Below are positions 5,231 to 26,326 of a stretch of DNA of 26,326 bases, one piece after another. Every line of letters starts with the position of its first letter. The first letter of the stretch is position 1. The position numbers and the translations under genes are program-made. Origin of the DNA: Verrucomicrobiota bacterium (GTDB taxonomy: Bacteria; Verrucomicrobiota; Verrucomicrobiia; Verrucomicrobiales; Akkermansiaceae); assembly GCA_037133195.1 (NCBI GenBank), contig JBAXOP010000039.1, positions 1 through 26,326 of the forward strand, written 5' to 3'. The notes below the pieces were generated by a model. That model was not told where the DNA came from, searched no databases, and worked only from the letters and a program-made list of their open reading frames with translations.

Positions 5231-5264
5231 GGCTTCATCAATCGTCTCGGATTTTGTTCCGTTT

Positions 5265-12182: not shown

Positions 12183-12233
12183 GGGTTAGGAACGAGTACG
12201 CACCAAAAAACACAAGTTACGCGCTGATGTCGA

Positions 12234-12269
12234 GGCGAATGTTGATGCCTGTCGGCGAATGTTGATGCC
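12234..12269. promoter_or_regulatory. Two copies of a 16-nt direct repeat (GGCGAATGTTGATGCC) with 20-bp periodicity, upstream of the giant gene
   Basis: Perfect copies at 12234-12249 and 12254-12269, separated by 'tgtc'. They lie 52-87 nt upstream of the ATG at 12182, in the 199-nt gap between the two minus-strand genes. A regulatory role is inferred only from position and helical phasing. Confidence 0.4.
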
Positions 12270-12381
12270 CGGCACCTCCAACCCCATTTGATCGGTGTGG
12301 AAAACTCTCATGCCGTCATCACCCCGAATTTGGCTTAGGCCTCCTATAGTAATAAACCTCCCGAGTCACTTGGACCGTTAC

Positions 12382-15267
12382 TCATCGTTCCACTCCCTGC
12401 GCCTTGCGGGTTCTGTTGCAATAATCTACCAGCCGCACAGACTTCGGCGCAAAGGGAGCAACATGGATCGTGTTAGATCCGGGCTTGAGAAGGCGGGTGA
12501 TGTCGAGGCGCAGCGGCTTGCCGATGAAGCCGCCAGCGAAGCGGCCATTGACGGTCACGCTGGCGGCGGCTTCGGGTTCGAGTTCGTCCACTTCCAGACA
12601 GATGCGGGCCTTGGTTAGATCAAGATCGGCGGGGAGGGTACAAGTTCCAGCAAACGGATTTGCCGTCACCGGGCTGGTATTGACGTGTCGTCCTGCGGCA
12701 TTACGCAACCCATCCACCTCTGATGTGGTCGGGTTGGCGCTCAGAATGATTGTCTCCTTATCAGTGCCCTTGAGGGTGATGGTTTTTCCCCCGGCGATGC
12801 ATACGGCCTCCAATGTCTTGACCACGCCGAATGCCGGGTCATCACCATCCGCCAAACGCGCTACAAGCAGCAGGTGTTCTCCGGCGTTGATCCGTTGTTG
12901 CAGGCGCTCGCGCACATCTCGGCTGCGCTGGGCGTCGCCCGGCACACCGTAGCTTGCATTAACCACAACAAGTTTGGCAGGCTGTGTCTTATCCTCCACT
13001 GGCCGGGTATCGAGCACTGGGATTTCACGTTGCGGCTTCATGTCGCTAGTGATGCGGACGGGGAGTTGACGCGGTTGGCTCTGGAAAACGATCAGCACAC
13101 TTTCAGTCGGCTCCAGTGTGAGTGAAAATTCCGTTCCGCTAGCCGCCGGTTTACTCGGGATAGAAGTGATTTCGTTGCGCATTGGATCCCAGATTTCAGG
13201 TGTGCCATTGACGGCGGCGTGGAACGTGAACTGTCGGGCGGCTCCCTCACGGTTCTGGTTACAGACTAGGAATACGTCGTGGCCAGATTTCTGGCGATGC
13301 AATATATGCAGCCAGTTGCCGGTGTCGCCCGACACCACTTCCAGGGCAGGGTGAATGCCGGCATCATCAGTTAGCACTTTCTTCATGTCTGCGGCTGTGG
13401 GTTTTTCCGGCAAGAAATACAAGCGACCTCCAGCGGCGTTAGTCTTGCAGGCGCTCAGACCGGGGGTGGCCGCACCCCACAGCGCGTCTCGCAGGGTGGC
13501 AATGTCCTTGGCATCACGGCCGAGGGTAGCCGATTTACTTGGCAGCATGCCATAAGCAATGACCACGCCGCCCATGTCGAAGAACTCACGCGCCTTGGCC
13601 AGCGTCGGATAGGGAATCACCTCGACGGCTGGCATGACCAATACCTGATAAGTTTCCTTGTGCAGCGTGATCCCCTTCCCTGCTAGTGTGGCGTCCTTTT
13701 CCCAGGCGTCGTATTGCAACCAATCGCAGTCGTACTGCGCGTCCTGCAAGGTGCTGGTTAGCTCTTCCGGCCGCAGTTTCGCTCCAACGTGGTAACTCTG
13801 CCCAAGGTGCAACATGGCTACCGGCGCCACATGCCGCCCACCGGTTAGCATCAGGCTCAGGCGGTTGGTGTAATCGGCCCAAACTCGATAAAGCGGCCAG
13901 CGTGGCTCCTTGCCGCCGTTATAAAAATAGGGCGGGTAGTCGCCGTCGTAGGGTGCCCGCGGATTGAACGAGTGCGGAATGAGGAAATTGACGCCACGGA
14001 CTTGGTGCCAGTCGGCAAGCCACTTCATCGTTGGATAGGTAAGGTTTTGGTTATACCCGCCGAAAATTTCACAGAATGCGATATCGTTATCCTTGTTGTA
14101 GGTGTGCGAGACCGAGCTAGCCATCTTGGGCATCTGGTATTCACCCATATTGCGATTGCCGGGTTGCAATTGGCCGCAGACCAGATCCATGCCGCCCATA
14201 TCACTGAACTTCTGCAATTGCATCATGTTCCCCCCAGACATGTCACGGTTGAACATGTCGTTGCCGTGCTCCATGAAATGGCCCATCGAGAATACCTTGT
14301 GCTCGCGGCACCAGCGGCTCATGCCCCCATACATCGTGCGGCCCCACGACTCGGTGAAACAATCGAGATATGTATAATAGGCCGCAACCTGGTCATCTCC
14401 GATGAGCTTGAACTTATATCCAACCAATAATTTATTCAGGTCGAGATTGCGCTCGGCCACCAGCTTGGGAAAATCGCTCCCCCAGTCGCCCTGGGTTTCC
14501 GGCTCATCGTAGAAATAGCCGCTGATGGTTTTTCCGAAGTCACTCTTGAAGCGATCATAATGCGGCTGATAGACAGTCTTGATGAACCAATCAACGCAAG
14601 CCGGATCCGCTCCATCCACCGAGACGTATTTCTGTTGGCCGCCTTTCGTGCCGTTGAATTTCCAGGTGAATTTCATGATGCGCCAGGTGCCCGCCGGGGC
14701 ATTCCATTGCAGAGTGCCGCCCTTTACCGATGTCGTTAGATCCACCAATTTACTGCCGTCCACCGCCCCATCAACCTCGCGGCCGGCGATGACCCGGATG
14801 AGGTTCGGGTCGTTGTAACCGGTCTCGCTCACTACTTTCGGGCCCTCGACGCGAAGATCTGAGGCCACCAGGCGTTTGCTGCCATATTCGGGCGGCACGC
14901 GGCCGCCCATCATTTGGCTCGGCCACCACCAGTCGTCGTAGATGATCATGGTGAGGTCATTCTTGCGGGCGAAATCGAGGTTGATGCCCAGGTCGCGGTA
15001 CCAGCCCTCGCCGAGCCAATCCTTGTGCGGGCGAGGCTCGGCGGTGAATGTCCCATTATGGCCTTCCAATACCTTCTGCAATTCGCCTTCCAATTGGCTG
15101 CGTGTTTCATCGCCGTGCATCCAGAACAACGGACCGGTCAGGCGTCGCGCCTCCATCGGCAAGGTGTCAAATTGTTTTTCCAAGTCCATCCAGCCGGGTT
15201 CCATGGCATGCAGGGATGGAAGGGCGAGTAACACGAGTGCGCTTGTGGTAAATCTGGCTGATTTCAT
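12382..15267 (-). CDS. Secreted glycoside-hydrolase-like protein (family unassigned; TIM-barrel-like N-terminal half, C-terminal galactose-binding-like domain)
   Basis: The track ORF is 12382..15594, but I place the start at the ATG at 15265-15267. This gives 'MKSARFTTSALVLLALPSLHA', a typical signal peptide. The upstream 109 codons are low-quality and run through a tRNA fragment and a terminator. The body contains 'PLFWMHGDETRSQLEGELQKVLE...DWLGEGWYRDLGINLDFARKNDLTMIIYDDWWWPSQ'. The C-terminus contains 'VTVNGRFAGGFIGKPLRLDITRLLKPGSNTIHV'. This style matches large Bacteroidota/Verrucomicrobiota 'glycosyl hydrolase' proteins. Confidence 0.7.
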   Translation of the reverse strand: MKSARFTTSALVLLALPSLHAMEPGWMDLEKQFDTLPMEARRLTGPLFWMHGDETRSQLEGELQKVLEGHNGTFTAEPRPHKDWLGEGWYRDLGINLDFARKNDLTMIIYDDWWWPSQMMGGRVPPEYGSKRLVASDLRVEGPKVVSETGYNDPNLIRVIAGREVDGAVDGSKLVDLTTSVKGGTLQWNAPAGTWRIMKFTWKFNGTKGGQQKYVSVDGADPACVDWFIKTVYQPHYDRFKSDFGKTISGYFYDEPETQGDWGSDFPKLVAERNLDLNKLLVGYKFKLIGDDQVAAYYTYLDCFTESWGRTMYGGMSRWCREHKVFSMGHFMEHGNDMFNRDMSGGNMMQLQKFSDMGGMDLVCGQLQPGNRNMGEYQMPKMASSVSHTYNKDNDIAFCEIFGGYNQNLTYPTMKWLADWHQVRGVNFLIPHSFNPRAPYDGDYPPYFYNGGKEPRWPLYRVWADYTNRLSLMLTGGRHVAPVAMLHLGQSYHVGAKLRPEELTSTLQDAQYDCDWLQYDAWEKDATLAGKGITLHKETYQVLVMPAVEVIPYPTLAKAREFFDMGGVVIAYGMLPSKSATLGRDAKDIATLRDALWGAATPGLSACKTNAAGGRLYFLPEKPTAADMKKVLTDDAGIHPALEVVSGDTGNWLHILHRQKSGHDVFLVCNQNREGAARQFTFHAAVNGTPEIWDPMRNEITSIPSKPAASGTEFSLTLEPTESVLIVFQSQPRQLPVRITSDMKPQREIPVLDTRPVEDKTQPAKLVVVNASYGVPGDAQRSRDVRERLQQRINAGEHLLLVARLADGDDPAFGVVKTLEAVCIAGGKTITLKGTDKETIILSANPTTSEVDGLRNAAGRHVNTSPVTANPFAGTCTLPADLDLTKARICLEVDELEPEAAASVTVNGRFAGGFIGKPLRLDITRLLKPGSNTIHVAPFAPKSVRLVDYCNRTRKAQGVER

Positions 15268-15360
15268 TGAATTTATAGGGCTTGGTGTTTCGAGCAGCAT
15301 CGGATTTCGGCGGGGTTCCATGGCACTTGTACCTCTCCCCATACGGGCATTCTTCCCCGA

Positions 15361-15389
15361 ATTATTCACCTCAACACCTCGATTTTCAA
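15361..15389 (-). promoter_or_regulatory. Candidate sigma70-type promoter for the hydrolase gene starting at 15267
   Basis: The minus strand reads TTGAAA (15389-15384), then the 17-nt spacer ATCGAGGTGTTGAGGTG, then AATAAT (15366-15361). It lies about 94 nt upstream of the ATG. This is a pattern match only, and promoter rules for this phylum are poorly known. Confidence 0.3.
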
Positions 15390-15428
15390 GGTGGGCCCGC
15401 AGGGATTTGAACCCTGGACCAAGGGTGC
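15390..15428 (-). other. Orphan tRNA 3' fragment (variable-region end, T-arm, acceptor 3' strand); probable att-type integration scar
   Basis: The minus strand reads CTTGGTC-CAGGG-TTCAAAT-CCCTG-CGGGCCC-A-CC. That is a 5-bp T-stem (CAGGG/CCCTG), a canonical 7-nt T-loop (TTCAAAT), a 7-nt acceptor 3' strand, discriminator A, then CC. No complementary 5' acceptor strand (GGGCCCG), D-arm or foldable anticodon arm exists in the roughly 60 nt upstream. Confidence 0.6.
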
Positions 15429-15451
15429 AGATTCTAAAAGCAGGCAAATTG

Positions 15452-15491
15452 GCGGATAAAAAGAAAGCCGGGCCATTGCTGGCCCGGCTTT
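15452..15491 (-). terminator. Rho-independent terminator (minus strand)
   Basis: Perfect 11-bp stem AAAGCCGGGCC (15464-15474) / GGCCCGGCTTT (15481-15491) with a 6-nt loop. On the minus strand the stem is followed by CTTTCTTTTTAT. On the + strand only TTTGATGG follows, so the minus orientation is favoured. It lies downstream of the minus-strand gene ending at 15820. Confidence 0.6.
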
Positions 15492-15626
15492 GATGGCGAT
15501 TCAGGGCAGAGTTCTTATCCCTATTGTTTTTGACCGACAGAAGAAATTTGCGTTCAGCTAGCGAACTTTTCCCGACAGAGGACCGCCAGCGCACGCAGTT
15601 TCTCAGGCAGTTCCTAAGCTAATTGC

Positions 15627-15819: not shown

Positions 15820-16221
15820 TCAAAAAGTCCGGCGCAGTGAGCCATTCACATATTCGGCGGTGCGGCCGTTTTTGAGGTCGCCGAAAACCGAACCGCCGCT
15901 GACCCTGACCCGCACGACGTCCGAACCATAGGAGCGGCGCAATGATCCATTCACGTACTCCTGGATGCGCCCGTTTTTGGTGACCGCCGCCACGATTTCG
16001 CCGTCGGTTGAGGCGTCCACAATATCCGAGCCGTAGGATCGGCGCAATGAGCCGTTGACGTATTCCTGGATGTGACCGCCCTTCACCCGGACTGTGGAGG
16101 CGTCGGCAGCCATGGCTGGTGGCAGGGTCAGCACGGATAGGACGGCCAGGATGCACAAGACGAAGGCGGCAGTAAAGAGGCGGAGGATGGCGCGGCGCAG
16201 CTTGGGAATGGGGGAGGACAT
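15820..16221 (-). CDS. Small secreted protein with three ~33-aa internal repeats (hypothetical)
   Basis: The track ORF is 15820..16269. I prefer the ATG at 16219-16221, which gives 'MSSPIPKLRRAILRLFTAAFVLCILAVLSVLTLPPAMA', a signal peptide with an AxA site. The mature part has three copies of '[KN]G[HR][IT].EYVNGSLRR[ST][YF](GSD[IV]V)'. No family is recognised. Confidence 0.6.
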   Translation of the reverse strand: MSSPIPKLRRAILRLFTAAFVLCILAVLSVLTLPPAMAADASTVRVKGGHIQEYVNGSLRRSYGSDIVDASTDGEIVAAVTKNGRIQEYVNGSLRRSYGSDVVRVRVSGGSVFGDLKNGRTAEYVNGSLRRTF

Positions 16222-16472
16222 GGCTGGAGTTTTGGTGGAAGAAAAATCCTTGCCGATGAACATACCCATCGCATCAGCAGAGTCGAGTCATCTTTTGAAG
16301 ACGGGGGAGGCTTTTGAGATTTTGAGGGCAGTCGCGAAATTTTTATCGCGGCGGGGGGGATGAAACCTGCGTGTGCAACCCGCCGGCGGCCACCCACAAT
16401 ACGCTCACCGGCTACCCAACCTAACTTAATGTACAGCATTATCAGTTACTTTCACAGAAACATAGACATATC

Positions 16473-17050
16473 ATGAGTAACAACAACGAACCGAAGCGCT
16501 ACGCCGGGGGGTGTCTCAGGGAGGTCTTAGACCCAGGGTGGGATATGCTATTCCACTGCGCCAATTGTGGACTGGAGAGCCTGGGAAATGATTCGGGTCC
16601 GGAGTATCTGCATCAATCCTTCTTTACCCGCGAGCGCTCGGATTGTGCCCATAACGTTGTTTCCATTGTGCTCCCCCATGTCACTGAAATGTTAGGCAAT
16701 CTCTCGAGGGGCCGCCTCCAGAAACCCGGGAGGAGGTTTTCGCTTTCGCCGGAGCATCTACGCAGTGGCAGAGGGAAAAACTCCATCGCATCGAACAACT
16801 CCCGGAAATCAACCTCGACGCTATTGTTCTCGTTTGGGATACAGATGACGAAGGCCAGGAAAGATCCGAACCATATGCCCAGATCATCATTCGCTGCGGC
16901 GAGCGGGAGATTTACCGGGGACCATCCAGTTGGGAATACTACGCATACTTCATCGACGCCTGCAAGGTGCTGCGCCGAAAGTATGGAAACCGGCTCCATG
17001 ACGTGATCCCAACCGAGCGAACATGGAGTGCGCTGTGTGACAATGCCGGC
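16473..17050 (+). pseudogene. Hypothetical gene with an apparent 1-nt frameshift near 16690-16735 and no clean stop
   Basis: The frame of the ATG at 16473 gives a plausible 'MSNNNEPKRYAGGCLREVLDPGWDMLFHCANCG...VLPHVTEMLGNLS' and then turns into R/S-rich junk. A second frame opens at 16688 and reads convincingly: 'EGPPPETREEVFAFAGASTQWQREKLHRIEQLPEINLDAIVLVWDTDDEGQERSEPYAQIIIRCGEREIYRGPSSWEYYAYFIDACKVLRRKYGNRLHDVIPTERTW'. That frame has no ATG/GTG/TTG before 16967 and a purine-rich first codon position. It then decays into P/R-rich sequence with no stop until 17587. The 3' boundary is uncertain. Confidence 0.4.
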
Positions 17051-17084
17051 GCCTCAGCTCCGTGCGCAGCACCTCTTCTCTTCG

Positions 17085-17126
17085 GTTCGACGTTGGAAGT
17101 TCGGCGTTCGATGTTCAGTGTTCGCC
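17085..17126. repeat. Six tandem heptamers (GTTCGNN)x6
   Basis: The sequence reads gttcgac gttggaa gttcggc gttcgat gttcagt gttcgcc. The 7-nt period is incompatible with coding periodicity. The array lies about 250 nt upstream of the RyR-domain gene start at 17379. Confidence 0.8.
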
Positions 17127-17378
17127 TTCCCCTAATGAACCGCCCAGCCCCCGCGCAAAGCTCTTTGCCATCTAAAATCCATAATCCCAAATCTCCGCCT
17201 CACCCTCTGCCACCTCGTGTGGGCACAATGATGGCCCTGCCCGAGCCCTCACATGCCCGTCGCTCTGCTCGGTTCATGCGTGGGATTCCATGCTTCACCC
17301 TTGCAGTTCCCAGGCTTTTGGCTATGACTACGGCAGGTTTCACCCAATCCCCTTCAGCACCTCATCACCCGCATCCCA

Positions 17379-19028
17379 ATGTCAGAGCATTCCTTACCCA
17401 AACTGCCCGCAAAGCTGTCACCGAAACTGATGGTACTCGGCGGCCTCCTGTTTCTCAGTTTTCTATGCCTCGGCTATTACGGGTGGACGGAGACGCTGCG
17501 CGAGGCGACCGGCGGGGGCCAGCCATCAGAGTCGTTGTTTCACACGGTGGAACTGGTGACCGGAGAGACGGCGCTCGTGGTGGATGAGATCCATAGCCAG
17601 CACTGGGCACTGATGGTCGCAAAATGGGGGATCAAGAGCTTGCTCGCAGTGGCCATTTTTCAATCGGGGATTTACCTTTTCCGGCGGCAATTGCGCCGCT
17701 GGAAGTTTCGCAAGGTCTCCGGCCATCAGGTGTTTCTCGGGCTGGACACATCCAACCAGGAACTTATCAGACTGGCACTGGCAGATGGCAGGCAGGTGGC
17801 GGTGATTGATAAAGACGAGCATCACCCGCGTCGCGCAGATCTCGAATCGCAAGGTGTCCTTTTCCTGTGTGGCAGCCCGCTGGACCCAGGGTTGTTGCGC
17901 AGCGCCGGCGCAGCCCGGGCCAAGCGGGTGGTCGCGGGAACGGGTAGCGATGAGAAAAATGCGGCCGCCGCAGAACAGGTCGCGGCACTGGTGAAGCAGG
18001 AAGCCGGAAAATCCGTTGAAATTCTGGTGCCGATCGAGTGCCCAAAAATGCGCGAATTGCTCCGCGAGCGCTGGGAGCTTTTGTCCCATGCACATGGGTT
18101 TCACGTTCGCTTGGTAGGCTTCCGCCCGGCGGCGCTCCGCCATGTCCTGACCCAGCTCGCCGGGTTGCTGGCCAATTCCCCAGACATCTGCGGCCGCGGA
18201 CCACGAATCCTGCTAGCCGCGCCTGCAGATTTTGCCTTGGCGTTGTTGGATCTGGCCGTGCCCTTCCTGCAAGTGACTGGCGATGCATTGCCGTCCTACG
18301 ACATCTGTGGCGTCGCCGACAGCGAGGCCCGGCGCTTTCTCAAACAACATCCAGACCTCGGTCTGGTGGCGGATGTGGTGTTCCATCCCGAGTCTGTGGA
18401 TGAAGCGCCGCTGGCGGAGGGCCTTGATGACAGTGAGTTCGATGTCGCCTTGGTGCATCTCGATTCGGAGGCCGCCACCCTGGCTGCCGCCGACGCTCTC
18501 CTCCGCAGCAATCGCTTTCGGGTCGGGCGGGTGCAGGCCATCATTCACGCGTCTCCGGTCATCCGCATCAAGCCCGATGAACGCCTGCAGGTTCTATCAC
18601 TTTTCATGCACGGCATGAGCGCGCCCGAATTCGGCGATCACTCGCTCGAACAACTGGCCAGGGACAACCACGAGACCTATCTGGCGGGCCTGGTCCCCGC
18701 CGAACGCGCCAGCGCCTCGTCGTGGCAGGCCTTGGGCGAGGCATTCAAGGACTCAAACCGCTGGGCCGTCTTGCACCGGAATGTCAAATTGGCCATCTGG
18801 CAAAATACGGCCGATTCCGACCAGCCCGCCATCCTCGAAATGTTGGCCTGTTCCGAGCACCAGCGGTGGATGGGCGAAAAAATCATGGCCGGCTGGCGCG
18901 GCGGAGCCACCCGCGACAATTTCCACAAAATCCACCCGGACATCCGTCCCTATGCCGACCTTTCGGAGCCGGCCAAGGAGAAAGACCGCGTGCAAGTCCG
19001 CAAGGCGCTGGGTCTGAAAAATCAATAA
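17379..19028 (+). CDS. Membrane protein: 2 predicted TM helices, TrkA-N/RCK-like Rossmann domain, C-terminal RyR domain
   Basis: Complete 549-aa ORF in the track. TM candidates 'LMVLGGLLFLSFLCLGYYGW' and 'WGIKSLLAVAIFQSGIYLF'. TrkA-N-like 'HQVFLGLDTSNQELIRLALADGRQVAVIDKD...GVLFLCGSPLDPGLLRSAGAARAKRVVAGTGSDEKN', where the GxGxxG motif has degenerated to GLDTSN. The C-terminal 'LARDNHETYL' and 'EHQRWMGEKIMAGWRGGATRDNFHKIHPDIRPYADLSEPAKEKDRVQVRKAL' match the RyR-domain signature (PF02026) as I recall it. Confidence 0.8.
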   Translation: MSEHSLPKLPAKLSPKLMVLGGLLFLSFLCLGYYGWTETLREATGGGQPSESLFHTVELVTGETALVVDEIHSQHWALMVAKWGIKSLLAVAIFQSGIYLFRRQLRRWKFRKVSGHQVFLGLDTSNQELIRLALADGRQVAVIDKDEHHPRRADLESQGVLFLCGSPLDPGLLRSAGAARAKRVVAGTGSDEKNAAAAEQVAALVKQEAGKSVEILVPIECPKMRELLRERWELLSHAHGFHVRLVGFRPAALRHVLTQLAGLLANSPDICGRGPRILLAAPADFALALLDLAVPFLQVTGDALPSYDICGVADSEARRFLKQHPDLGLVADVVFHPESVDEAPLAEGLDDSEFDVALVHLDSEAATLAAADALLRSNRFRVGRVQAIIHASPVIRIKPDERLQVLSLFMHGMSAPEFGDHSLEQLARDNHETYLAGLVPAERASASSWQALGEAFKDSNRWAVLHRNVKLAIWQNTADSDQPAILEMLACSEHQRWMGEKIMAGWRGGATRDNFHKIHPDIRPYADLSEPAKEKDRVQVRKALGLKNQ

Positions 19029-19618
19029 CGCGCCCCGCTGTCGAAACCGCCAAGCAGGCCACCCCGCATCCGCCCCATGCAATCTCATCCTGACTCCACA
19101 CCTGAGCCGACATCGGCAAGGTCTGGCATGGCGGAGTCTGCGGATGGCATCCCTTTTCCGTCGTTCCCGTCCTTGACAGCACAGGCGTTTCAACTAAGAT
19201 CCCAAGGTCGCTATGCACTCCACCCCATCGAAACCGCTTTTCACCATCACCGTGCCACAACCGAAGGCCTTGGTGAAGAGGGCGACCGTGACCTCGGTTT
19301 CGCAGAGGCAGAAGGTCACTACCGCGCAGGCGCTCAAGGGTTACGCCTATCTGAAATCCCACAGCTCCCGCAGCAACTCCGCGAGATGAGCCGACTCGGG
19401 GTGGTGGACCGGGCCAGCCGCAAGGCGCTGTGGACATCCCCCCAATCCCGAACCGGCCGCAATTTCTTGCCGATTTCGTTTGACGGGCCTGCGTACCGGC
19501 GTTTGACTTTCCCCAGCAGACCCGCCGGGCCTCTCCTCTCCTTCTGGAGGGTGATGCTTACTTCGGCGGGTGTTTCTTTTTCAGGCGATGGCACCAATGA
19601 CAGAAGGGAATCGAGGCC

Positions 19619-19915
19619 ATGAAATATGAAAAGGCGGCGCTGACCTTCGAGGAGCAGGCCACGCAACTGATCAACCGCGGACTCATCGCGGACCACAGGC
19701 AACTCATTGAACGCCTCCAGGCCACGAACTACTATCGCTTTACCAGAGGCATCATGCTGTTGATCATTCGCCAGTGGCTGGAGCGAGTGAACTCATCCCA
19801 TTCGTGGCATACCCGCGTGGAAAGCCTCTTCGACGACTTCCCTGAAACCGACCTCGTCGCGCTAGGGTTGGACCCGGCATGGCGTGAACACCCAATCTGG
19901 AACCCCGCCTCATGA
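19619..19915 (+). pseudogene. Internally deleted Abi_2-family (AbiD/AbiF-like abortive-infection) gene relic, 98 codons
   Basis: 'MKYEKAALTFEEQATQLINRGLIADHRQLIERLQATNYYRF' matches the characteristic N-terminus of Abi_2 (PF07751) proteins. 'WHTRVESLFDDFPETDLVALGLDPAWREHPIW' matches their C-terminal tail. The roughly 200 aa normally between them, including the conserved R..x..AHH region, is missing. The junction lies near 19742-19750. Its stop (TGA, 19913-19915) overlaps the ATG at 19912 of the next gene. Confidence 0.6.
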
Positions 19916-22900
19916 AAAAAGCTCCATCATCCCAAAGCCGCCTCGTCCGCGTCTTCATCAGCTCGACCTTCCGTGATTTCATGGGAGAGCGGGATGAGTT
20001 GGTGAAGAAGATCTTTCCGGAGTTGCGCAGTCGCTGCAAGGAGCGGTTTGTGGAGGTATTGGAGGTGGACTTGCGCTGGGGGATTACGGAGGAGCAGAGC
20101 AAGCAAGGCGAGACGCTGCGCATCTGCTTGCGAGAGATCGACCGTTGCCGGCCCAGCGCGCCTGTGTTTTTCATCGGGATGCTCGGTGAGCGTTACGGGT
20201 GGATCCCGCCGCAGGATTTCTATCCGAAAGACGTGTTGGACGACCCGGACTTGGAGTGGGTGAAGGATCACGTCGGAGGCAAGAGCGTGACCGAATTGGA
20301 AATTCTGCACGGTGTGCTGCGCGACGCGAAGATGCGTGATAAGGCGTTTTTCTACTTTCGAAACGACGGTTATGAGCAACGGCATTGGGATGAGATTCAT
20401 ACAAGTCCCGCATATTCAAATCTCGCCCCCCCGGTCACGCAGGACGACTTCACCAATGCGGATTCCCGGGCGGGCAAAGCAGATGCGGCGAAGCTGAACG
20501 AGCTGAAGCAACGGGTGCGTGATGCCTCATTCAAGTGGGAGCCCAAGGACTATGAGACGCCGGAGAAACTGGCCAGCATGGTGCTCGAGGATCTCTGGAG
20601 CGCCATCGACGAAATCTTCCCGGCCAGTTCGGTGCCCGATGCCTTGGCGCGCGAAAGCTTGGAGCATCGCGTGTTCATGGAAAATCGCAGCAAGGCCTAT
20701 GTCGAGCGCGTTGGGTTATTTGAAAAGCTGGACGCATTCGTGGACACGGCGAAAATCGATGCATTGGATTCAGGCGACGAGGATATCGAGGATGATGCCA
20801 CCAAGACAGCACCGCCACTTCCCGCGGTGAGAGTGGTTCTGGGCGAATCCGGAAGCGGGAAAAGTGCCCTGCTGGCGGCGTGGCTCGAGCCCCGGATGAA
20901 GGGTGTTGTGTTTTTCCATTTCACCGGTGCCACGCCTGCGAGCGGTTCCGGTTCCTCGATCTTGCGCCGCCTGCTTGCCACACTGCGCCAACGCGGGGCG
21001 GTGGCTGCATCGGAGGCGATTCCACAATCTGACGAGGCCTTAGCGCAGGCCCTGCCGATGTGGCTGGAGCGTCTCTCCGAACAAGGCGGCGGAATCCTGC
21101 TCATAGATGCGGTGAACCAACTCGGGTCCGCCCGTGACCGCGAACTTTGGTGGTGGCCAGAGCAGTGGCCCGCGAATGTGTGCATCATCATCAGCACCCT
21201 GGCCGGCGACTCGCTCCGTGAGATGCAGCGCCGCGGTTGGATCACGGAGGATCTTGTCATCCGCGTCCAGCCGCTCCAGACCGGAGAAAAGCACGCGATC
21301 ATGGATTCCTATCTGAAGCTCTTTACCCGGGAACTGGAGCCCCGGCTTCAGGAACAGATTCTTGCTGCACCACAGACGGCCAATCCGCTTTTCTTGCGCA
21401 CGGTGGTTGAGGAATTGCGCCTACGCGCCCAACACACGACATTGGAGAGCAACCTCGCCGCCATGCTCAGTTGCCCCGATCCGGCCGCGCTCTTTGTGCA
21501 TGTTTTGAAGAATCTGGAGCGGGACTTTACTCCGCGCGAACACCCCGGTCTGGTCCGCCGGGCGCTGGGGCTCATGGGAGCGGCTCAGCGCGGGCTTTCG
21601 GAAAATGAGATCCTGCAACTCCTCTCGCCATCGAGCACCCCGGCCTCCGACCCCTTGCCTCGCCACTACTGGGCTGCGCTTTACCTAGCACTGGAAGATT
21701 CCCTGGTCAGCCGCGATGGTCAGTTAGGGTTTTTCCACGACTACCTGCGACAAGCGGTGCTGCGCGAATATCTCGACGAGGAACACGAGCGAGTGGCCGC
21801 CAATCGACGTCTGGCCGAGACCGTCACGCACTGGAAAGATGCGGACGCGTTTGGTTCCAGCCTCCGCGCCTACGGGTTTGAGTTTGGCATCCGGCACCTT
21901 TTGGCCATTGGCGGGTTGGATGCCGCGACACAACTGCTGCTGAATGCAAACTACCGGCAAACCGCCGCCATCGCCCTCGGGGCCGCGGAACCCATTCAGC
22001 GACAAGTGGAAGCCACCCGCATGGAAGCGACCCGCGCCGGTGGCATCGACGTGGCGGCATCCGCACAACTTACCGTTCAGGCATTGAAAGGGCGGGTTGA
22101 TCTCAAGTGCCACCTGCGCAGCCATCTGGACGATTGTGCCAGGCTAGGGAAATGGGAAGAGGTGATGAAGTTGGCTGCCGCTGAGGAGAACGATGAGGCA
22201 AGGTTCATGCTCGGGCTGCGGGCCGCTTTGGCGGGACGTCCTGTGAAGAGCGATGATTTCAAGGCGTTTCTGTATTCTCTCGGCTTGACGGTGAATGAAA
22301 GGAAATTGCGCGGGGCTCCTGTAGAGGTGGAAGCCAAATTGGTTTCCAGCTTCAGAATCTTAGGTATCCGGGTTGACATCGATGATATTACCCAAGGTGA
22401 CGTATGGGATATCGGCCTGGAACTCCGCGATGGCGCGATCCGGTTCTCAATCAATGGGACGCTGGTGGCGGCCAAATTGGTGGAGAGTTCAATCGGTAGC
22501 GCCTGCCACAACCTGCCGGAGGATTTGCGCTTTCTGAGCGCCACCAGCCTAACGGAACTCGTCGATATCTCGCCATTGGCACGGTTCCGAAATCTTCGCA
22601 AGCTGGACCTGTCCGAGTGTTCTTCTTTGAAAGATCTGTCACCACTCGCCGATTTGCCGGAGATGATCACATTGAAACTGGATCTGTGTAACAATCTCCA
22701 AGACATCGCACCGCTTGGAAGATTGGCAAGCCTCCTTAATTTGACCCTGCGAGGCTGTGAATCGCTCGAAGACGCATCCCCTCTCGCCAGTCTGTCTGCC
22801 TTGAGGCATCTAGAACTCATTGCAAATTTCACCCTGCTCAAAAACGCTGCTGCGATCGGTAATCTGCATGCCCTGGAAGTTCTCATTCTAGATATCAACG

Positions 22901-24741
22901 AATCACTCAATGATCCGACTCCCATCGGCAATCTGCATTCCTTGAAAATCCTTGAAATATCTCATTTCAATAACTGGGAGAATCTTGATTTTGTATCCCG
23001 GATGCGCGGGCTTGAACAACTCATCTGGACGGGGTGCGATTCGCTCAACGACATGGCCGGCTTGCGGAACCTTTGCGAATTGGAATTCCTGCTCTTGAAT
23101 GGATGCCAGCGATTGGTGGATCTACGCCCTCTGGCTGAACTCGGAAAGCTTTCCAAATTGGTTCTTTTCAACGCGAAGAAAATTGCAGACCTCCGGCCTC
23201 TTGGCCATCTTCGATCACTTCGGCAAGTCAGCATAGAGGGTTCGGATACGCTTCATGAGTTAGCGCCGCTTCGAAATTTAAATAACTTGGAGGAACTGTC
23301 GGTGTCAAAATGTCGTCAGTTGGAAGCAGTGGATGACTTGCTCGGATTGCCGACCCTGGGTGTTTTGAAGATCAATGATTGCCCAAAGGTTGCTTCGGTC
23401 ACTCTGACTGGATTGCCGAACCTTCGTGAGGTTGATCTGAGTGGCTGTCAGAGAATTTCTTCACTCGCCTCACTCGCAGCTGCGCCGCGGATCACCAGCC
23501 TGAATCTTGATGGATGCACCGGCATAGCTGACTTCAGTCCGGTGGCCGCCATTCCCAGCTTGAAAGTGCTCAAAGTGAATGGCTGTAAGCAACTATCGGC
23601 ACTGCCAGATTTTGACGATTCCAGCCATCTCGAACAAATTGAATTCACTGGCCTTAGTCGCGTCCGCTCGATCGAGCCATTGCACAAATCTCGCCAACTG
23701 AGAATCATTGAAAGTGACTTCCATCCCGGCATGGTCGCTGAAATCCTCGCTTCGGCGGCCGTGGCTCGTCCTGATGACCCATTCATCTCCAGCAATGCCT
23801 CGGCATGGCTTGGAGAGGTGAGTCGCTTTGCTGATAACAGCGGGAGTGATCGCGAGCGCCTAGCCACCACTCTGGGACGAGCCTTCGGCAGGCTGTCGGA
23901 CAACCATCCGATTGTGCCGCGCTACGAGGCGTTTCTCAAGAGTCGGCCGGAATTTTCCGCTGAGCCATGGAAAGCCTGGTTCCGGGGAACCGCAATCGCC
24001 AGGCATCACGCGTTCGATGTTCTCGTGAGTCGGATTGAGCGACTGGACTTGCTCTCGCTCACGCCAGGAGTCGTGGGCGGGGTGTGCGCCGCATTGGCGG
24101 ATGACACTGCCCCGGCGGAGCACCAGAACTGGGCGCGGGCATGGCTGGAGCAATTCGAAAAAGTCCACAGCGGCCGCGCTCATGCGTTGCTCCAGGTGAG
24201 CGCCGAAATCTGCTTGGCATACGCCCGCCTCGGTGAGAGTGAAGCCCTGGAGCGCTGGCTGACAAGATTCACCGATCCGTCCGATCCCGCAGCCCTTGAT
24301 CCGGTGCAGGTGGCTCTTGGGAACTGGCGGTTAGGGAGGGGTGATTTCGATGCAGCCTACCGGCATGCGGCCGCCGTTCAAATGCCCAGGATCAGCGACC
24401 CCCTGCTGATGAAATTGGCGGAGGCCTGGACCGTGCTGGAATCGGGGAGAGCGGGCGAGATTCTGCTGGCGATTGTGGATCCGTCCTTGCGCTGCGAATT
24501 GATGAAAATACTGGCCAGCAACCGGGAGTTTGTTGCGGTGCCATTGAATGTGCAGCGCCTGATGGTGGCGGCCGGGGATCGCCCCGAAGCACTCGGCAAT
24601 CTCATTGCGGAGGTCGGCGCCACAGCTGACCCGGCACACTTCGAGGAATTATGCGCGCTCCTGCAAACCAGCGCTGAGGCGATGCGCTCGTGGCGGCGCG
24701 ATCGGCTGCAGCAAATGCTCGAGGCCATCGACAAGGAATAG
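19912..24741 (+). CDS. NLR-architecture STAND protein: DUF4062-type N-terminal domain, NACHT-type P-loop NTPase, helical region, ~17 Cys-containing LRRs, unassigned C-terminal helical domain
   Basis: Complete 1609-aa ORF in the track. Motifs recognised:
- DUF4062 signature 'RVFISSTFRDFMGERDEL...FFIGMLGERYGWIPP' (aa 13-100)
- Walker A 'GESGSGKS' (nt 20842-20865)
- Walker B 'ILLID' (nt 21094-21108)
- 'VCIIISTLAG' (NACHT 'hhhTSR'-like)
- 'LQPLQTGEKHAIMDSYL'
- 'NPLFLRTVVEEL' (nt 21382-21417, GxP/PLxL-like)
- 23-24-aa LRRs of the type 'L..L..L.L..C..L.DL.PL' from about nt 22540 to 23710
- C-terminal domain starting 'FHPGMVAEILAS' at nt 23719. Confidence 0.9.
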   Translation: MKKAPSSQSRLVRVFISSTFRDFMGERDELVKKIFPELRSRCKERFVEVLEVDLRWGITEEQSKQGETLRICLREIDRCRPSAPVFFIGMLGERYGWIPPQDFYPKDVLDDPDLEWVKDHVGGKSVTELEILHGVLRDAKMRDKAFFYFRNDGYEQRHWDEIHTSPAYSNLAPPVTQDDFTNADSRAGKADAAKLNELKQRVRDASFKWEPKDYETPEKLASMVLEDLWSAIDEIFPASSVPDALARESLEHRVFMENRSKAYVERVGLFEKLDAFVDTAKIDALDSGDEDIEDDATKTAPPLPAVRVVLGESGSGKSALLAAWLEPRMKGVVFFHFTGATPASGSGSSILRRLLATLRQRGAVAASEAIPQSDEALAQALPMWLERLSEQGGGILLIDAVNQLGSARDRELWWWPEQWPANVCIIISTLAGDSLREMQRRGWITEDLVIRVQPLQTGEKHAIMDSYLKLFTRELEPRLQEQILAAPQTANPLFLRTVVEELRLRAQHTTLESNLAAMLSCPDPAALFVHVLKNLERDFTPREHPGLVRRALGLMGAAQRGLSENEILQLLSPSSTPASDPLPRHYWAALYLALEDSLVSRDGQLGFFHDYLRQAVLREYLDEEHERVAANRRLAETVTHWKDADAFGSSLRAYGFEFGIRHLLAIGGLDAATQLLLNANYRQTAAIALGAAEPIQRQVEATRMEATRAGGIDVAASAQLTVQALKGRVDLKCHLRSHLDDCARLGKWEEVMKLAAAEENDEARFMLGLRAALAGRPVKSDDFKAFLYSLGLTVNERKLRGAPVEVEAKLVSSFRILGIRVDIDDITQGDVWDIGLELRDGAIRFSINGTLVAAKLVESSIGSACHNLPEDLRFLSATSLTELVDISPLARFRNLRKLDLSECSSLKDLSPLADLPEMITLKLDLCNNLQDIAPLGRLASLLNLTLRGCESLEDASPLASLSALRHLELIANFTLLKNAAAIGNLHALEVLILDINESLNDPTPIGNLHSLKILEISHFNNWENLDFVSRMRGLEQLIWTGCDSLNDMAGLRNLCELEFLLLNGCQRLVDLRPLAELGKLSKLVLFNAKKIADLRPLGHLRSLRQVSIEGSDTLHELAPLRNLNNLEELSVSKCRQLEAVDDLLGLPTLGVLKINDCPKVASVTLTGLPNLREVDLSGCQRISSLASLAAAPRITSLNLDGCTGIADFSPVAAIPSLKVLKVNGCKQLSALPDFDDSSHLEQIEFTGLSRVRSIEPLHKSRQLRIIESDFHPGMVAEILASAAVARPDDPFISSNASAWLGEVSRFADNSGSDRERLATTLGRAFGRLSDNHPIVPRYEAFLKSRPEFSAEPWKAWFRGTAIARHHAFDVLVSRIERLDLLSLTPGVVGGVCAALADDTAPAEHQNWARAWLEQFEKVHSGRAHALLQVSAEICLAYARLGESEALERWLTRFTDPSDPAALDPVQVALGNWRLGRGDFDAAYRHAAAVQMPRISDPLLMKLAEAWTVLESGRAGEILLAIVDPSLRCELMKILASNREFVAVPLNVQRLMVAAGDRPEALGNLIAEVGATADPAHFEELCALLQTSAEAMRSWRRDRLQQMLEAIDKE

Positions 24742-24763
24742 CCAGACATCGCAGTTAGAAACC

Positions 24764-26326
24764 ATGAAAATCCTCGTCCGGCCCGGTTCAACGATCAAGG
24801 AGAAGACTTCCAGCGTTAGGAGTTTTCTCAATTCGCTGGGTGCACAGGCCGACCGTTATGCCGATCCGCAGACTTGTGAGATGACTCAGAACACCAAGCT
24901 CAACCTGTTTGGCATCTGGGTTCCCATGACGAAGGAACTTTACCAGAGCGCCGAATGGGAATACCAAATCATCAGAAAGCAGGGTACTCTCCGCTTCACG
25001 ATCAACGGGAACACCATCGCCGCAAAATGCCTTGGCAAACTCGAGGATGGCTGGATCCGAGGTTTGCCTCAGGAGCTTGAAAACCTGACGCTCACGCATC
25101 CAAAAGACACTGCGGGTGACCCTGGCAACCTGGCTGCGCTTGCTCCTCTGGGAAAGTTGGTCCGGCTCAATCTGAGCGGGTGGAGCGATCTAGTGGACCT
25201 CGGCGGGATTGAATCCCTGAAGTTGCTGAGGATGTTGAATTTGGATGGTAGCAAGTCTTTAACGAACCTTGCGCCTCTCGCCTCGCTTCACGAATTGCGC
25301 GTCCTCGATCTAGCCAGTTGTACGGTTCTCGAGGATCTGTCGGCCCTGGCAACCCTCGAGTGGCTTCGCTACCTGGATCTTTCGCGCAGCAGCAGGATCC
25401 GCGATTGCAGCGCTCTTCGCGGGCTGAAACGCCTTAATTCCTTGAAGTGGACTTATTGCGGCAAGCGCAAGGATGTGAATCTGCTAGGCGGGATTAGCTC
25501 TTTGGAGTGGCTCGATCTCGGGAATGGTACCTGCCTCGAGGATTTGTCCGGGCTCGCCCAATTGGAAAATCTCAAATCGCTCACACTCGCGGACGGCAAT
25601 GCCATCAAGTCGATTGAGGCACTGGCCTCACTCCAGCAACTTGAGCGACTTGACATGAGTGGGTGTGAATCCCTGGGAGACCTCAAGCCATTGGCAAATC
25701 TGCGTGCACTGGCTCATTTGGACCTGAGCAATTGCTCTAAAATTAGGAGCATCGCCGCGCTATCCAGTTTGGAATCATTGAAATCATTGGACTTGAGCGA
25801 TTGCTATCAGGTGAACAATCTCCGGCCTTTGGCGTCTCTAAAAAACCTCGAATCCCTCGCGATTACCAGAATGAAGCGGCTCAAGTCGATTGAACCGCTG
25901 CGAAACCTGCCGAAACTTTTAAAACTCAGGTCCAGTTTTCATCCGGGCAGCGTGGCGGACGTCTTGGCGTCTCTGGCTGTCACTCGCACGGATGTCGACC
26001 TGATATCTAGCACTGCCAAGAGATGGCTTGCGGAGGCGATGCGGTTTGATTCGGAGAATCAGGCAGAGCGCGAAAACCTCACCGGCACATTGGGTGAAGC
26101 CTTCAATCTGTTGCCGCAAGATCACGAGATTCTGCCTCATTTCGAAGAATTTCTGCTTCGCCACCCTGAGTTTAGTGCCCGCCCGTGGAAATCGTGGCTG
26201 CTGGGATCGATCCTCCATCACGGATTCGATGTTTTCCGCCAGCGCGTCGAGCGATTGCCACTGCCCAAACTCTCCCCGGGCGGCATCGGCGGTGTTTGCG
26301 TGGCTCTGCCGGATGGCGATGCGCCG
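24764..26326 (+). CDS. LRR protein, paralogue of the sensor half of the upstream NLR-like protein (no NTPase); 521 codons, with the 3' end beyond the window
   Basis: Absent from the ORF track because it runs off the window. I read all triplets from the ATG at 24764 to 26326 and found no stop. It starts 22 nt after the upstream stop. 'GTLRFTINGNTIAAKC' (nt 24983-25030) parallels 'GAIRFSINGTLVAAKL' of the upstream protein. About 11 LRRs of the same Cys-containing type span roughly nt 25124-25933. After that, 'FHPGSVADVLASLAV...HPEFSARPWKSW...GGIGGVCVAL' parallels 'FHPGMVAEILASAAV...RPEFSAEPWKAW...GVVGGVCAAL'. Confidence 0.85.
   Translation, partial: MKILVRPGSTIKEKTSSVRSFLNSLGAQADRYADPQTCEMTQNTKLNLFGIWVPMTKELYQSAEWEYQIIRKQGTLRFTINGNTIAAKCLGKLEDGWIRGLPQELENLTLTHPKDTAGDPGNLAALAPLGKLVRLNLSGWSDLVDLGGIESLKLLRMLNLDGSKSLTNLAPLASLHELRVLDLASCTVLEDLSALATLEWLRYLDLSRSSRIRDCSALRGLKRLNSLKWTYCGKRKDVNLLGGISSLEWLDLGNGTCLEDLSGLAQLENLKSLTLADGNAIKSIEALASLQQLERLDMSGCESLGDLKPLANLRALAHLDLSNCSKIRSIAALSSLESLKSLDLSDCYQVNNLRPLASLKNLESLAITRMKRLKSIEPLRNLPKLLKLRSSFHPGSVADVLASLAVTRTDVDLISSTAKRWLAEAMRFDSENQAERENLTGTLGEAFNLLPQDHEILPHFEEFLLRHPEFSARPWKSWLLGSILHHGFDVFRQRVERLPLPKLSPGGIGGVCVALPDGDAP

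Follow-up and report, generated by a model that had tools for sequence, protein, structure and literature searches.

Bacterial receptors of the bNACHT and Avs/AVAST types share a tripartite logic in which an effector, a STAND NTPase and a repeat sensor are combined, and bNACHT16 of Vibrio campbellii carries C-terminal leucine-rich repeats (LRRs; Kibby et al., bioRxiv 10.1101/2022.07.19.500537). One effector module, DUF4062, has been described as a TIR-like NADase yielding ADP-ribose (ADPR) and nicotinamide, and the bacterial DUF4062 proteins Swarozyc and Evangelion act in phage defence by NAD+ depletion (2026 preprints, bioRxiv 10.64898/2026.05.01.722283 and 10.64898/2026.06.25.731849). Here we analyse a 26,326-nt stretch of DNA from an Akkermansiaceae member of the Verrucomicrobiota (assembly GCA_037133195.1, contig JBAXOP010000039.1; hereafter the window), in which one gene encoding 1609 aa joins a DUF4062 (TIR-like)-NACHT head in frame to an LRR protein with a conserved C-terminal domain, bringing the same three kinds of part together on one chain. 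This fused gene is a single open reading frame (ORF) running from an ATG at 19912 to a stop ending at 24741 (+ strand). Around it lie the relic of an abortive-infection gene, a second, unfused LRR/C-terminal-domain paralog and a gene for a membrane protein with TrkA_N and RyR domains. An earlier note, made from the sequence alone, had picked out the fused gene and the relic and overlooked the other two, of which the membrane protein may be the most interesting member of the cluster. It had also credited the fused protein with a complete architecture like that of the nucleotide-binding LRR receptors (NLRs) and described the NACHT-LRR combination as rare in prokaryotes. A NACHT module does precede LRRs in one chain in this ORF, but that state is secondary, the two halves being separate genes in relatives, and the combination had already been published for bNACHT16.

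The fused gene arose in one lineage when a 170-bp deletion joined two translationally coupled genes in frame. Residues 781-1609 are 73% identical over 830 residues to P0121, a separate protein of 843 aa whose gene, in the closest unfused relative (locus L002), directly follows a DUF4062-nSTAND gene (834 aa), the two sharing 4 bp. Nucleotide alignment by blastn matches L002 1155-3522 to window 19931-22247 and L002 3709-6312 to window 22264-24870, with the fusion junction at 22248-22269 (+ strand), where relatives have 170 more bases. A four-way alignment of the window with L002, L007 and L008 contains one clean 170-column gap, flanked by an imperfect direct repeat (TTCGAGGAATTT / ATCAAGGCGTTT). 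The head gene has thereby lost its final ~33 codons together with the stop, and the LRR gene its first ~19 codons. Head and LRR protein are separate ORFs in L002, L004/L005, L007, L008, L009, L010, L011, L012 and L018, and the 4-bp overlap recurs in L002, L004/L005, L007 and L008. Wherever both genes are visible in related Verrucomicrobiota loci they are adjacent and separate, the heads measuring 784-834 aa and the LRR/C-terminal-domain proteins 691-1242 aa. LRRs are absent from the best 120 head homologues, and in an exhaustive search that placed the C-terminal domain in 92 representative clusters it occurs in no representative longer than 1139 aa. These three observations indicate that the single-chain 'NLR' is derived and, so far, unique; among the related loci with both genes visible, this ORF is the only one with the animal-type NLR order of a NACHT module followed by C-terminal LRRs in one chain.

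The source is a metagenome assembly, coverage is low (~4.8x in the name of a matching European Nucleotide Archive (ENA) contig) and all relatives have two genes, which raises the explanation that the long ORF reflects an error of assembly or sequencing in an organism that really has two genes. We regard this as very improbable. The identical 1609-aa product is encoded in three records, namely the window, ENA ERZ4224321 NODE_5074 and Logan SRR12676973; the ENA contig is not a copy of the window, since the two disagree at 2 of 8722 bases, so that recovery of the same product there and in the Logan contig argues against an assembler error. The gap itself, one clean block of 170 bp with a short repeat at its flanks, is also typical of a real deletion. 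Chance resemblance is ruled out for the fused protein because thousands of homologues exist for its N-terminal 40-54% (E down to 1e-228), together with the 73% identity of the remainder to P0121.

A weightier alternative is that the fusion is damage, a chance in-frame deletion in a decaying island; the product would be misfolded or locked in an off state, and the locus would be turning into a pseudogene. A random deletion has a one in three chance of staying in frame. The fusion is present in one lineage only, the abortive-infection relic lies immediately upstream, and the TrkA_N glycine loop of the neighbouring membrane protein is degenerate in the window copy. The deletion also takes a conserved N-terminal segment of the LRR protein; the remnant domain lacks its M-x-I-x-I motif, which is probably the first beta-strand. 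Against damage, no further stop or frameshift occurs across 4.8 kb, an intact second LRR paralog is retained, as is the RyR gene, and locus L011 has the degenerate glycine loop alongside an intact cassette. The ratio of non-synonymous to synonymous divergence (dN/dS) is 0.20-0.38 in every part of the fused gene, indistinguishable from that of an unfused-unfused pair; the parts are thus under purifying selection, a signal that stems mostly from the time before the deletion. On this evidence we consider damage unlikely.

By homology, the LRRs and the C-terminal domain, which the earlier note had taken for an extra, together form a pre-existing stand-alone protein family. In its 92 representative clusters the C-terminal domain always stands at the C terminus (a word-indexed homologue search with the same domain returned 15 proteins), LRRs lie upstream of it in 10/10 members scanned, and full-length members measure 650-1139 aa. 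The family layout is a small N-terminal domain, an LRR array and a ~340-aa helical C-terminal domain with PWKAW and RFTDPSDP..LDPV motifs, and the fused protein fits this layout. Its residues 781-870 (22252-22521, + strand) are the remnant of the small N-terminal domain, 74% identical to P0121 (L002 3697-3966). Seventeen repeats of 22-24 aa follow (22525-23697, + strand; aa 872-1262) with the consensus LxxLxLxxCxxLxDLxPLxxLxx and Cys at repeat position 9 in 10/17, and several LRR families score above their Pfam cut-offs over aa 885-1190 (LRR_4, E 2.9e-21). The C-terminal domain (23695-24738, + strand; aa 1262-1609, 348 aa) is predicted to be all-alpha, a TPR-like solenoid of ~20 helices in an AlphaFold2 model with mean pLDDT 90.2. 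Foldseek yielded no specific fold match for it, returning weak, generic TPR-like solenoids (E >= 2e-3, TM <= 0.38), and a PDB sequence search with the domain gave no match; its distribution in homologues makes this domain the hallmark of the stand-alone family of LRR partners. Pfam, motif reading and AlphaFold2 thus bear out the domain order, motif positions, LRR count and helical C-terminal domain given in the earlier note. We also considered other identities and rejected them. NCBIfam internalin and Xop LRR matches, which would point to an internalin or type III effector, are partial and far below their cut-offs, and a secreted internalin-like protein is at odds with the translational coupling of the gene to the head in the closest relatives and with the family N-termini displayed, in which we saw no hydrophobic signal by eye.

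The second, unfused paralog starts at an ATG at 24764, 22 nt past the stop of the fused gene, and runs off the window end (24764-26326, + strand; tblastn). It is complete in a longer contig, L019, where it encodes 730 aa (7160-9352) and is followed by a 668-aa TIR_2 protein. Compared with the fused copy, its LRR region is ~30% and its C-terminal domain 51% identical (tblastn). More distant members, at 28-29% identity, occur as two tandem copies near a calpain-type peptidase in L013 (219-7964) and beside a divergent NACHT gene with a different N-terminus in L014 (652-6747).

Several features suggest that the LRR protein acts as the sensor subunit. Heads that sit beside an LRR partner are short (784-834 aa) and lack TPRs, whereas partnerless paralogs carry TPR or WD40 repeats in cis. 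The LRR region is also the most divergent part, at 70-74% identity; the head reaches 85% and the C-terminal domain 78%. Among four orthologues 47/85 concave-face x positions vary, compared with 27/136 scaffold positions. Repeat-less paired heads, fastest evolution of the LRRs, concave-face variation and the tandem duplication of paralogs are together the basis of this assignment. Synonymous divergence (dS) from relatives is 0.46-0.54 for the LRR gene and 0.27-0.30 for the NACHT part of the head, and GC content over window 22000-23500, the LRR region, falls to 0.51-0.53 from 0.59-0.62 on either side. The GC dip and higher dS hint at a different history for the LRR part, for example exchange among LRR paralogs.

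The head begins with the DUF4062 domain (19948-20373, + strand; aa 13-154), for which Pfam gives a match at aa 13-101 (PF13271; E 9e-13, 48.7 bits against a curated cut-off of 24.7). The TIR-like domain of human TEP1 (PDB 11gz_A) aligns with aa 10-154 at E 4.9e-29. TEP1 is active as an NADase through E1008, and mutation of R908 or R976 lowers its activity (2026 preprint). Fused-protein residues R21, R94 and E130 (E130 codon, 20299-20301) align with R908, R976 and E1008, given a chain-to-TEP1 numbering offset that we derived from the three Arg residues named in the TEP1 paper, and all three are kept in 11/11 bacterial heads aligned; in the Swarozyc protein KpSwz the counterpart of the catalytic Glu is E97. 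The effector chemistry, which had been called unpredictable, becomes predictable because DUF4062 is a known NADase and the catalytic Glu and two Arg are conserved in the fused protein. Its DUF4062 domain is accordingly a predicted TIR-like NADase, with activity not guaranteed, since purified human NWD1, NWD2 and NPHP3 show no NADase activity in vitro (2026 preprint). As a separate observation, the L002 head carries a 17-aa insertion, LCAWIRRFLGLSPKGKS, at ~1500-1560, directly ahead of the catalytic SVTELE motif of its TIR-like domain.

The STAND/NACHT NTPase module follows (20827-21771, + strand; aa ~306-620) and comprises a nucleotide-binding domain, a helical domain and a winged helix. Its Walker A motif GESGSGKS occupies aa 311-318 (nt 20842-20865), so that K317, the lysine singled out in the earlier note, is correctly placed. 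The Walker B Asp is D399 in LLIDAVNQL, an NPLFL/EELR motif lies at aa ~491-503 and the winged helix carries FFH (F607-x-H609). Across 16 aligned relatives the G, S, G, G and K of Walker A, the Walker B Asp, NPLFL...EELR and FxH are invariant; the second acidic residue of Walker B is replaced by N/Q in the head clade. The nSTAND1 profile matches aa 306-486 just above its cut-off (28.5 bits against 27.1), and in the fused protein NACHT (PF05729; 18.8-21.3 bits against 26.7) and NPHP3_hel (23.4 against 27.9) stay below theirs. Aligned family members match NACHT in 13/16 cases (best E 8.7e-11), NPHP3_hel in 9/16 and HTH_NWD1 in 3/16. An AlphaFold2 model of the NTPase (pLDDT 85) finds MalT as its best Foldseek match (E 8e-8, TM 0.57), followed by CED-4, the plant TIR-NLR WRR4A, NRC3, Avs5 and Avs4; searching PDB sequences with a profile of the region returned P-loop noise only. 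Taken together, the profile and motif matches make the NTPase a STAND protein, probably of the NACHT clade and resembling NPHP3, NWD1 and TEP1. Kibby et al. assign TEP1 to clade 16 and NLR/CATERPILLER to clade 12 (bioRxiv 10.1101/2022.07.19.500537), and the affinity of the head to TEP1, NPHP3 and NWD1 suggests a NACHT clade other than clade 12.

These assignments define how the locus relates to described systems. Eukaryotic TEP1, NPHP3 and NWD1/2 and the large family of bacterial DUF4062-NACHT-TPR proteins annotated as 'nephrocystin-3' have in common with the head a TIR-like domain and a NACHT-clade NTPase with NPHP3_hel and HTH_NWD1 signatures, and bacterial relatives are 40-56% identical over aa 1-~700. 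The TEP1/NPHP3/NWD family carries its sensor repeats (TPR, WD40) in cis; here a repeat-less head stands next to a separate LRR protein, and the LRRs are fused to it in the window only. Swarozyc (KpSwz) and Evangelion (Eva01) likewise rely on a DUF4062 TIR-like NADase that higher-order assembly activates and that depletes NAD+ and brings about abortive infection, and KpSwz is activated by assembly on the phage portal (2026 preprint). By their descriptions, KpSwz and Eva01 are set apart from the present locus as single genes with DUF4062 and a helical or auxiliary region and no STAND NTPase, whereas here there are a NACHT switch, LRR sensors and an RyR partner. The likeness to bNACHT proteins, bNACHT16 especially, and to Avs/AVAST extends to the Avs4 and Avs5 fold matches, and H609 of the winged helix is the equivalent of NLRC4 H443; the difference is that no PADLOC model matches the fused protein.

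Plant TIR-type NLRs (TNLs; ROQ1, RPP1, WRR4A) offer a parallel in order of parts, with a TIR-type NADase, a STAND NTPase, LRRs and a post-LRR domain, and with the NADase switched on by oligomerisation. The parts themselves differ, the window protein having DUF4062 and not a canonical TIR domain, a NACHT-clade NTPase and not NB-ARC, and a TPR-like solenoid and not a C-JID. The likeness is one of convergent architecture, in a single chain that arose through a recent deletion; the TNL order of functions was reached independently from unrelated parts, a clean case of convergent receptor design.

Upstream of the fused gene lies a gene for a 549-aa membrane protein (17379-19028, + strand), characterized by Pfam, an orthologue profile and hydropathy. 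Hydropathy marks an N-terminal helix at aa ~13-36 and a probable second one at ~76-100. A TrkA_N/KTN domain follows at aa 121-225 (nt 17739-18053; Pfam E 4e-10) and an RyR domain at aa 481-544 (nt 18819-19010; Pfam E 4.2e-11, 43.4 bits against a cut-off of 27.4); a six-orthologue profile searched against PDB matches RyR repeats at E 2e-25 and TrkA at E 3e-19. Phage RyR-domain proteins (PF02026, RyDEP) bind or cleave 2'/3'cADPR through ligand residues H75, W78, H100 and D117, and a crystal of such a protein holds linear ADPR (PMC13232231). In the window protein H494, W497, H519 and D536 are spaced exactly as this tetrad (+3, +25, +42), and they are invariant in six orthologues that are only 23-43% identical to it. 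The RyR domain may therefore contain an ADPR-type ligand pocket. The arrangement has in common with Thoeris and the phage RyDEP sponges and glycosidases a TIR-type NAD+-processing enzyme linked to an ADPR-pocket protein, the link here consisting of genetic linkage and pocket residues. Unlike in those systems, a host gene encodes the RyR domain, which is anchored in the membrane and fused to TrkA_N, and the TIR-like enzyme is part of a STAND protein. The literature searched, including a systematic Thoeris survey, holds no link of a bacterial host RyR or TrkA_N-RyR protein to TIR, DUF4062 or STAND systems and no Thoeris effector with an RyR domain.

Searching with separate modules (tblastn) revealed a recurrent cassette of head, LRR/C-terminal-domain gene, often a second such paralog, and the membrane TrkA_N-RyR gene. 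A TrkA_N-RyR gene lies near the cassette in L002, L003, L004, L008, L009, L011, L012, L016 and the P0124 contig, with position and strand varying between loci. Look-ups that started instead from homologues of the RyR protein found TIR or DUF4062 genes adjacent in 3/3 informative loci, which lie on unrelated contigs, a count that leaves out L024, where the gene is at a contig end. In L021 the neighbour is a DUF4062-NACHT-TPR gene; in L022 the neighbours are a DUF4062-WD40 gene, with a 4-bp overlap, and two TIR_2-NPHP3_N-TPR genes; and in L023 there is a run of TIR_2 genes. What is new here is the split organisation with a dedicated LRR/C-terminal-domain family, its natural fusion and the linkage to an RyR-domain membrane protein, and the interest of the locus lies mainly at this system level and less in the single-chain architecture.

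On balance we favour, with modest confidence, the reading that the window holds a Verrucomicrobiota-specific multi-gene NAD-based conflict system, most likely of an anti-phage or abortive-infection type, with one of its junctions fused. In the product of the ancestral head gene, a TIR-like NADase of the DUF4062 type would have preceded a NACHT-clade STAND NTPase with no repeat sensor of its own. The partner of this gene would have been one or two genes whose product has a variable LRR array between a small domain at the N terminus and a conserved, TPR-like one at the C terminus, the first LRR gene abutting the head gene as in the closest relatives with their 4-bp overlap, and the usual third part would be the membrane protein with TrkA_N/KTN and RyR domains. 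Loss of 170 bp between two short imperfect repeats then removed the head stop and the LRR gene start, leaving a single chain. We propose that the LRR/C-terminal-domain subunit, acting in cis here and in trans in relatives, would recognise an invader-derived ligand, with the C-terminal solenoid or the small N-terminal domain of the LRR protein as the constant docking part. Recognition would release the NACHT module to bind nucleotide and oligomerise, and clustering of the TIR-like domains would start hydrolysis of NAD+ to ADPR and nicotinamide. The cell might then be arrested by NAD+ depletion itself, or an ADPR-type product might be read by the RyR domain, making the membrane protein a second effector or a regulator that removes the signal.

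The fusion is strong genetic evidence that the stand-alone LRR family works with the sensor-less TIR-like/NACHT protein, and some bacterial NLR-like receptors would, in view of it, be divided between an executor and sensor subunits that can be exchanged. For experiments, a ready single-chain construct is available in the fused allele. A bolder version of the conflict-system reading, which we put forward tentatively as less probable than its failure, makes the TrkA_N-RyR protein the downstream receptor or effector: an ADPR-type product would bind the RyR pocket and gate or activate a possible RCK-regulated cation pore, and the LRR proteins would be interchangeable trans sensors on one NACHT executor, a 'split NLR'. 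Were it true, prokaryotes would have a host-encoded counterpart of the (c)ADPR-to-ryanodine-receptor axis that is debated for animals, and the fused gene would be a natural Rosetta-stone proof of the split NLR partnership. How ADPR-type ligands act on animal ryanodine receptors is still an open question, and confirmation of the RyR linkage would supply a simple bacterial system for studying the action of such ligands on RyR domains. Between the two N-terminal helices of the membrane protein (window 17500-17680, aa ~40-100), four orthologues keep the segment Y.ALQLFT..GGD..G.VP, and the window and L011 copies differ there (TVELVTGET). The segment bears a faint resemblance to a cation-channel pore loop with an RCK domain after it, and Pfam finds no ion-channel domain in the protein.

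Several observations weigh against the conflict-system reading or parts of it. The TrkA_N-RyR gene was not found in L007, L010 and L018 and is therefore not obligatory, and its TrkA_N GxGxxG loop is degenerate in the window (17739-17800, LGLDTSN) as in L011 (AGCGQHN), in contrast to the canonical CGAGEKG of the L002, L008, L009 and L012 orthologues; because L011 shares the degenerate loop and yet has an intact cassette, we take the loop as a subfamily trait and not as decay. The published DUF4062 enzymes make linear ADPR as their only product. The usual form of Walker B is D-G-x-D-E, and NTP hydrolysis by the head may be weak because its motif reads DAVNQ. The fused protein could be impaired, since the deletion takes the tail of the head as well as the N-terminal segment of the LRR protein. 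Part of the synteny could be inherited and not selected because the loci found by starting from the LRR protein share ancestry. PADLOC v2 models match the fused protein in 0 families at E <= 0.1, and the left side of the window holds carbohydrate-active and adhesin genes and is not a defence island. Among the neighbours in the cluster the abortive-infection relic alone scores with PADLOC; a cluster of this kind, if it is a defence system, is invisible to that tool and marks a gap in defence catalogues.

Distribution bears on a further alternative, that the system has no connection with phage and serves cellular signalling or regulated cell death (developmental, kin-recognition or ion-homeostasis functions), inherited vertically at a fixed chromosomal site in the manner of eukaryotic NPHP3, NWD1 and TEP1. 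Locus scans with a five-sequence alignment found six genome loci and four metagenome loci; 6/6 genome-collection loci are Verrucomicrobiota (Luteolibacter, Akkermansiaceae, Verrucomicrobiaceae and Puniceicoccaceae), a confinement that suits such a role, and the same scan of viral contigs found none. The TrkA_N-RyR protein has no match in plasmid and phage collections, the genes flanking the cluster in the window are metabolic, a PKD gene lies downstream in three loci with Tubulin_2 after it in two, and the lack of NADase activity in the purified human proteins fits as well. Against this, the relatives show hallmarks of conflict systems: paralogs form arrays, gene content varies from one relative to another, TIR, FGE-sulfatase and IS66 genes lie nearby, and the LRRs are duplicated in tandem and diverge fast; the catalytic residues have been kept, and the bacterial DUF4062 proteins tested to date are anti-phage. 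We therefore hold a cellular-signalling role to be rather unlikely and prefer the conflict-system reading. The neighbours of the relatives comprise TIR_2 genes, an FGE-sulfatase/SH3 protein, a WD40 giant, IS66 (a transposase gene downstream of the LRR gene in L007) and arrays of DUF4062-NACHT-TPR paralogs, company that leaves the conflict or defence role proposed in the earlier note plausible.

The Abi relic named in that note is real and of the AbiD/Abi_2 type. It encodes 98 aa (19619-19915, + strand), of which aa 2-42 match positions 2-43 of the 277 of the PADLOC AbiD profile (E 1.4e-8), and it ends in a 4-bp overlap (ATGA) with the start codon of the fused gene; Pfam gives no Abi match in it even at E 10. 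The same slot holds Kinase-PolyVal in L004 and a 282-aa protein with no assignment in L002. Between the RyR gene and the relic lies an ORF of 181 aa and odd composition (19077-19622, + strand) with no Pfam or PADLOC match, which may not be a real gene; the single strong promoter-like site of the region, 19173-19200, falls inside it, and a promoter and terminator scan of 16200-26326 gave fewer sites than shuffled sequence.

On the left side of the window, 1433-15594 (- strand) is a carbohydrate-utilisation neighbourhood, with two GH106 alpha-L-rhamnosidase-family proteins (1265 and 1070 aa) around a 2305-aa surface protein with DUF6288, HEAT, cadherin-like and PA14 domains. A small protein of 149 aa, encoded at 15820-16269 (- strand), contains two IceA2-type repeats (Pfam E 1.6e-23) and has a hydrophobic N-terminal segment. 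On the far side of the DUF4062/LRR/TIR cluster, a PKD/BiPBP_C protein of ~720-970 aa occurs just downstream in L001 (24805-27038), in L019 (13834-16899) and in the 23-kb P0124 contig. In 2/3 of these loci it is followed by a large Tubulin_2 (PF13809) protein, and the L019 contig ends 162 bp into the next gene. The recurring PKD/BiPBP_C gene, with or without Tubulin_2, might anchor a variable island or else belong to a larger system.

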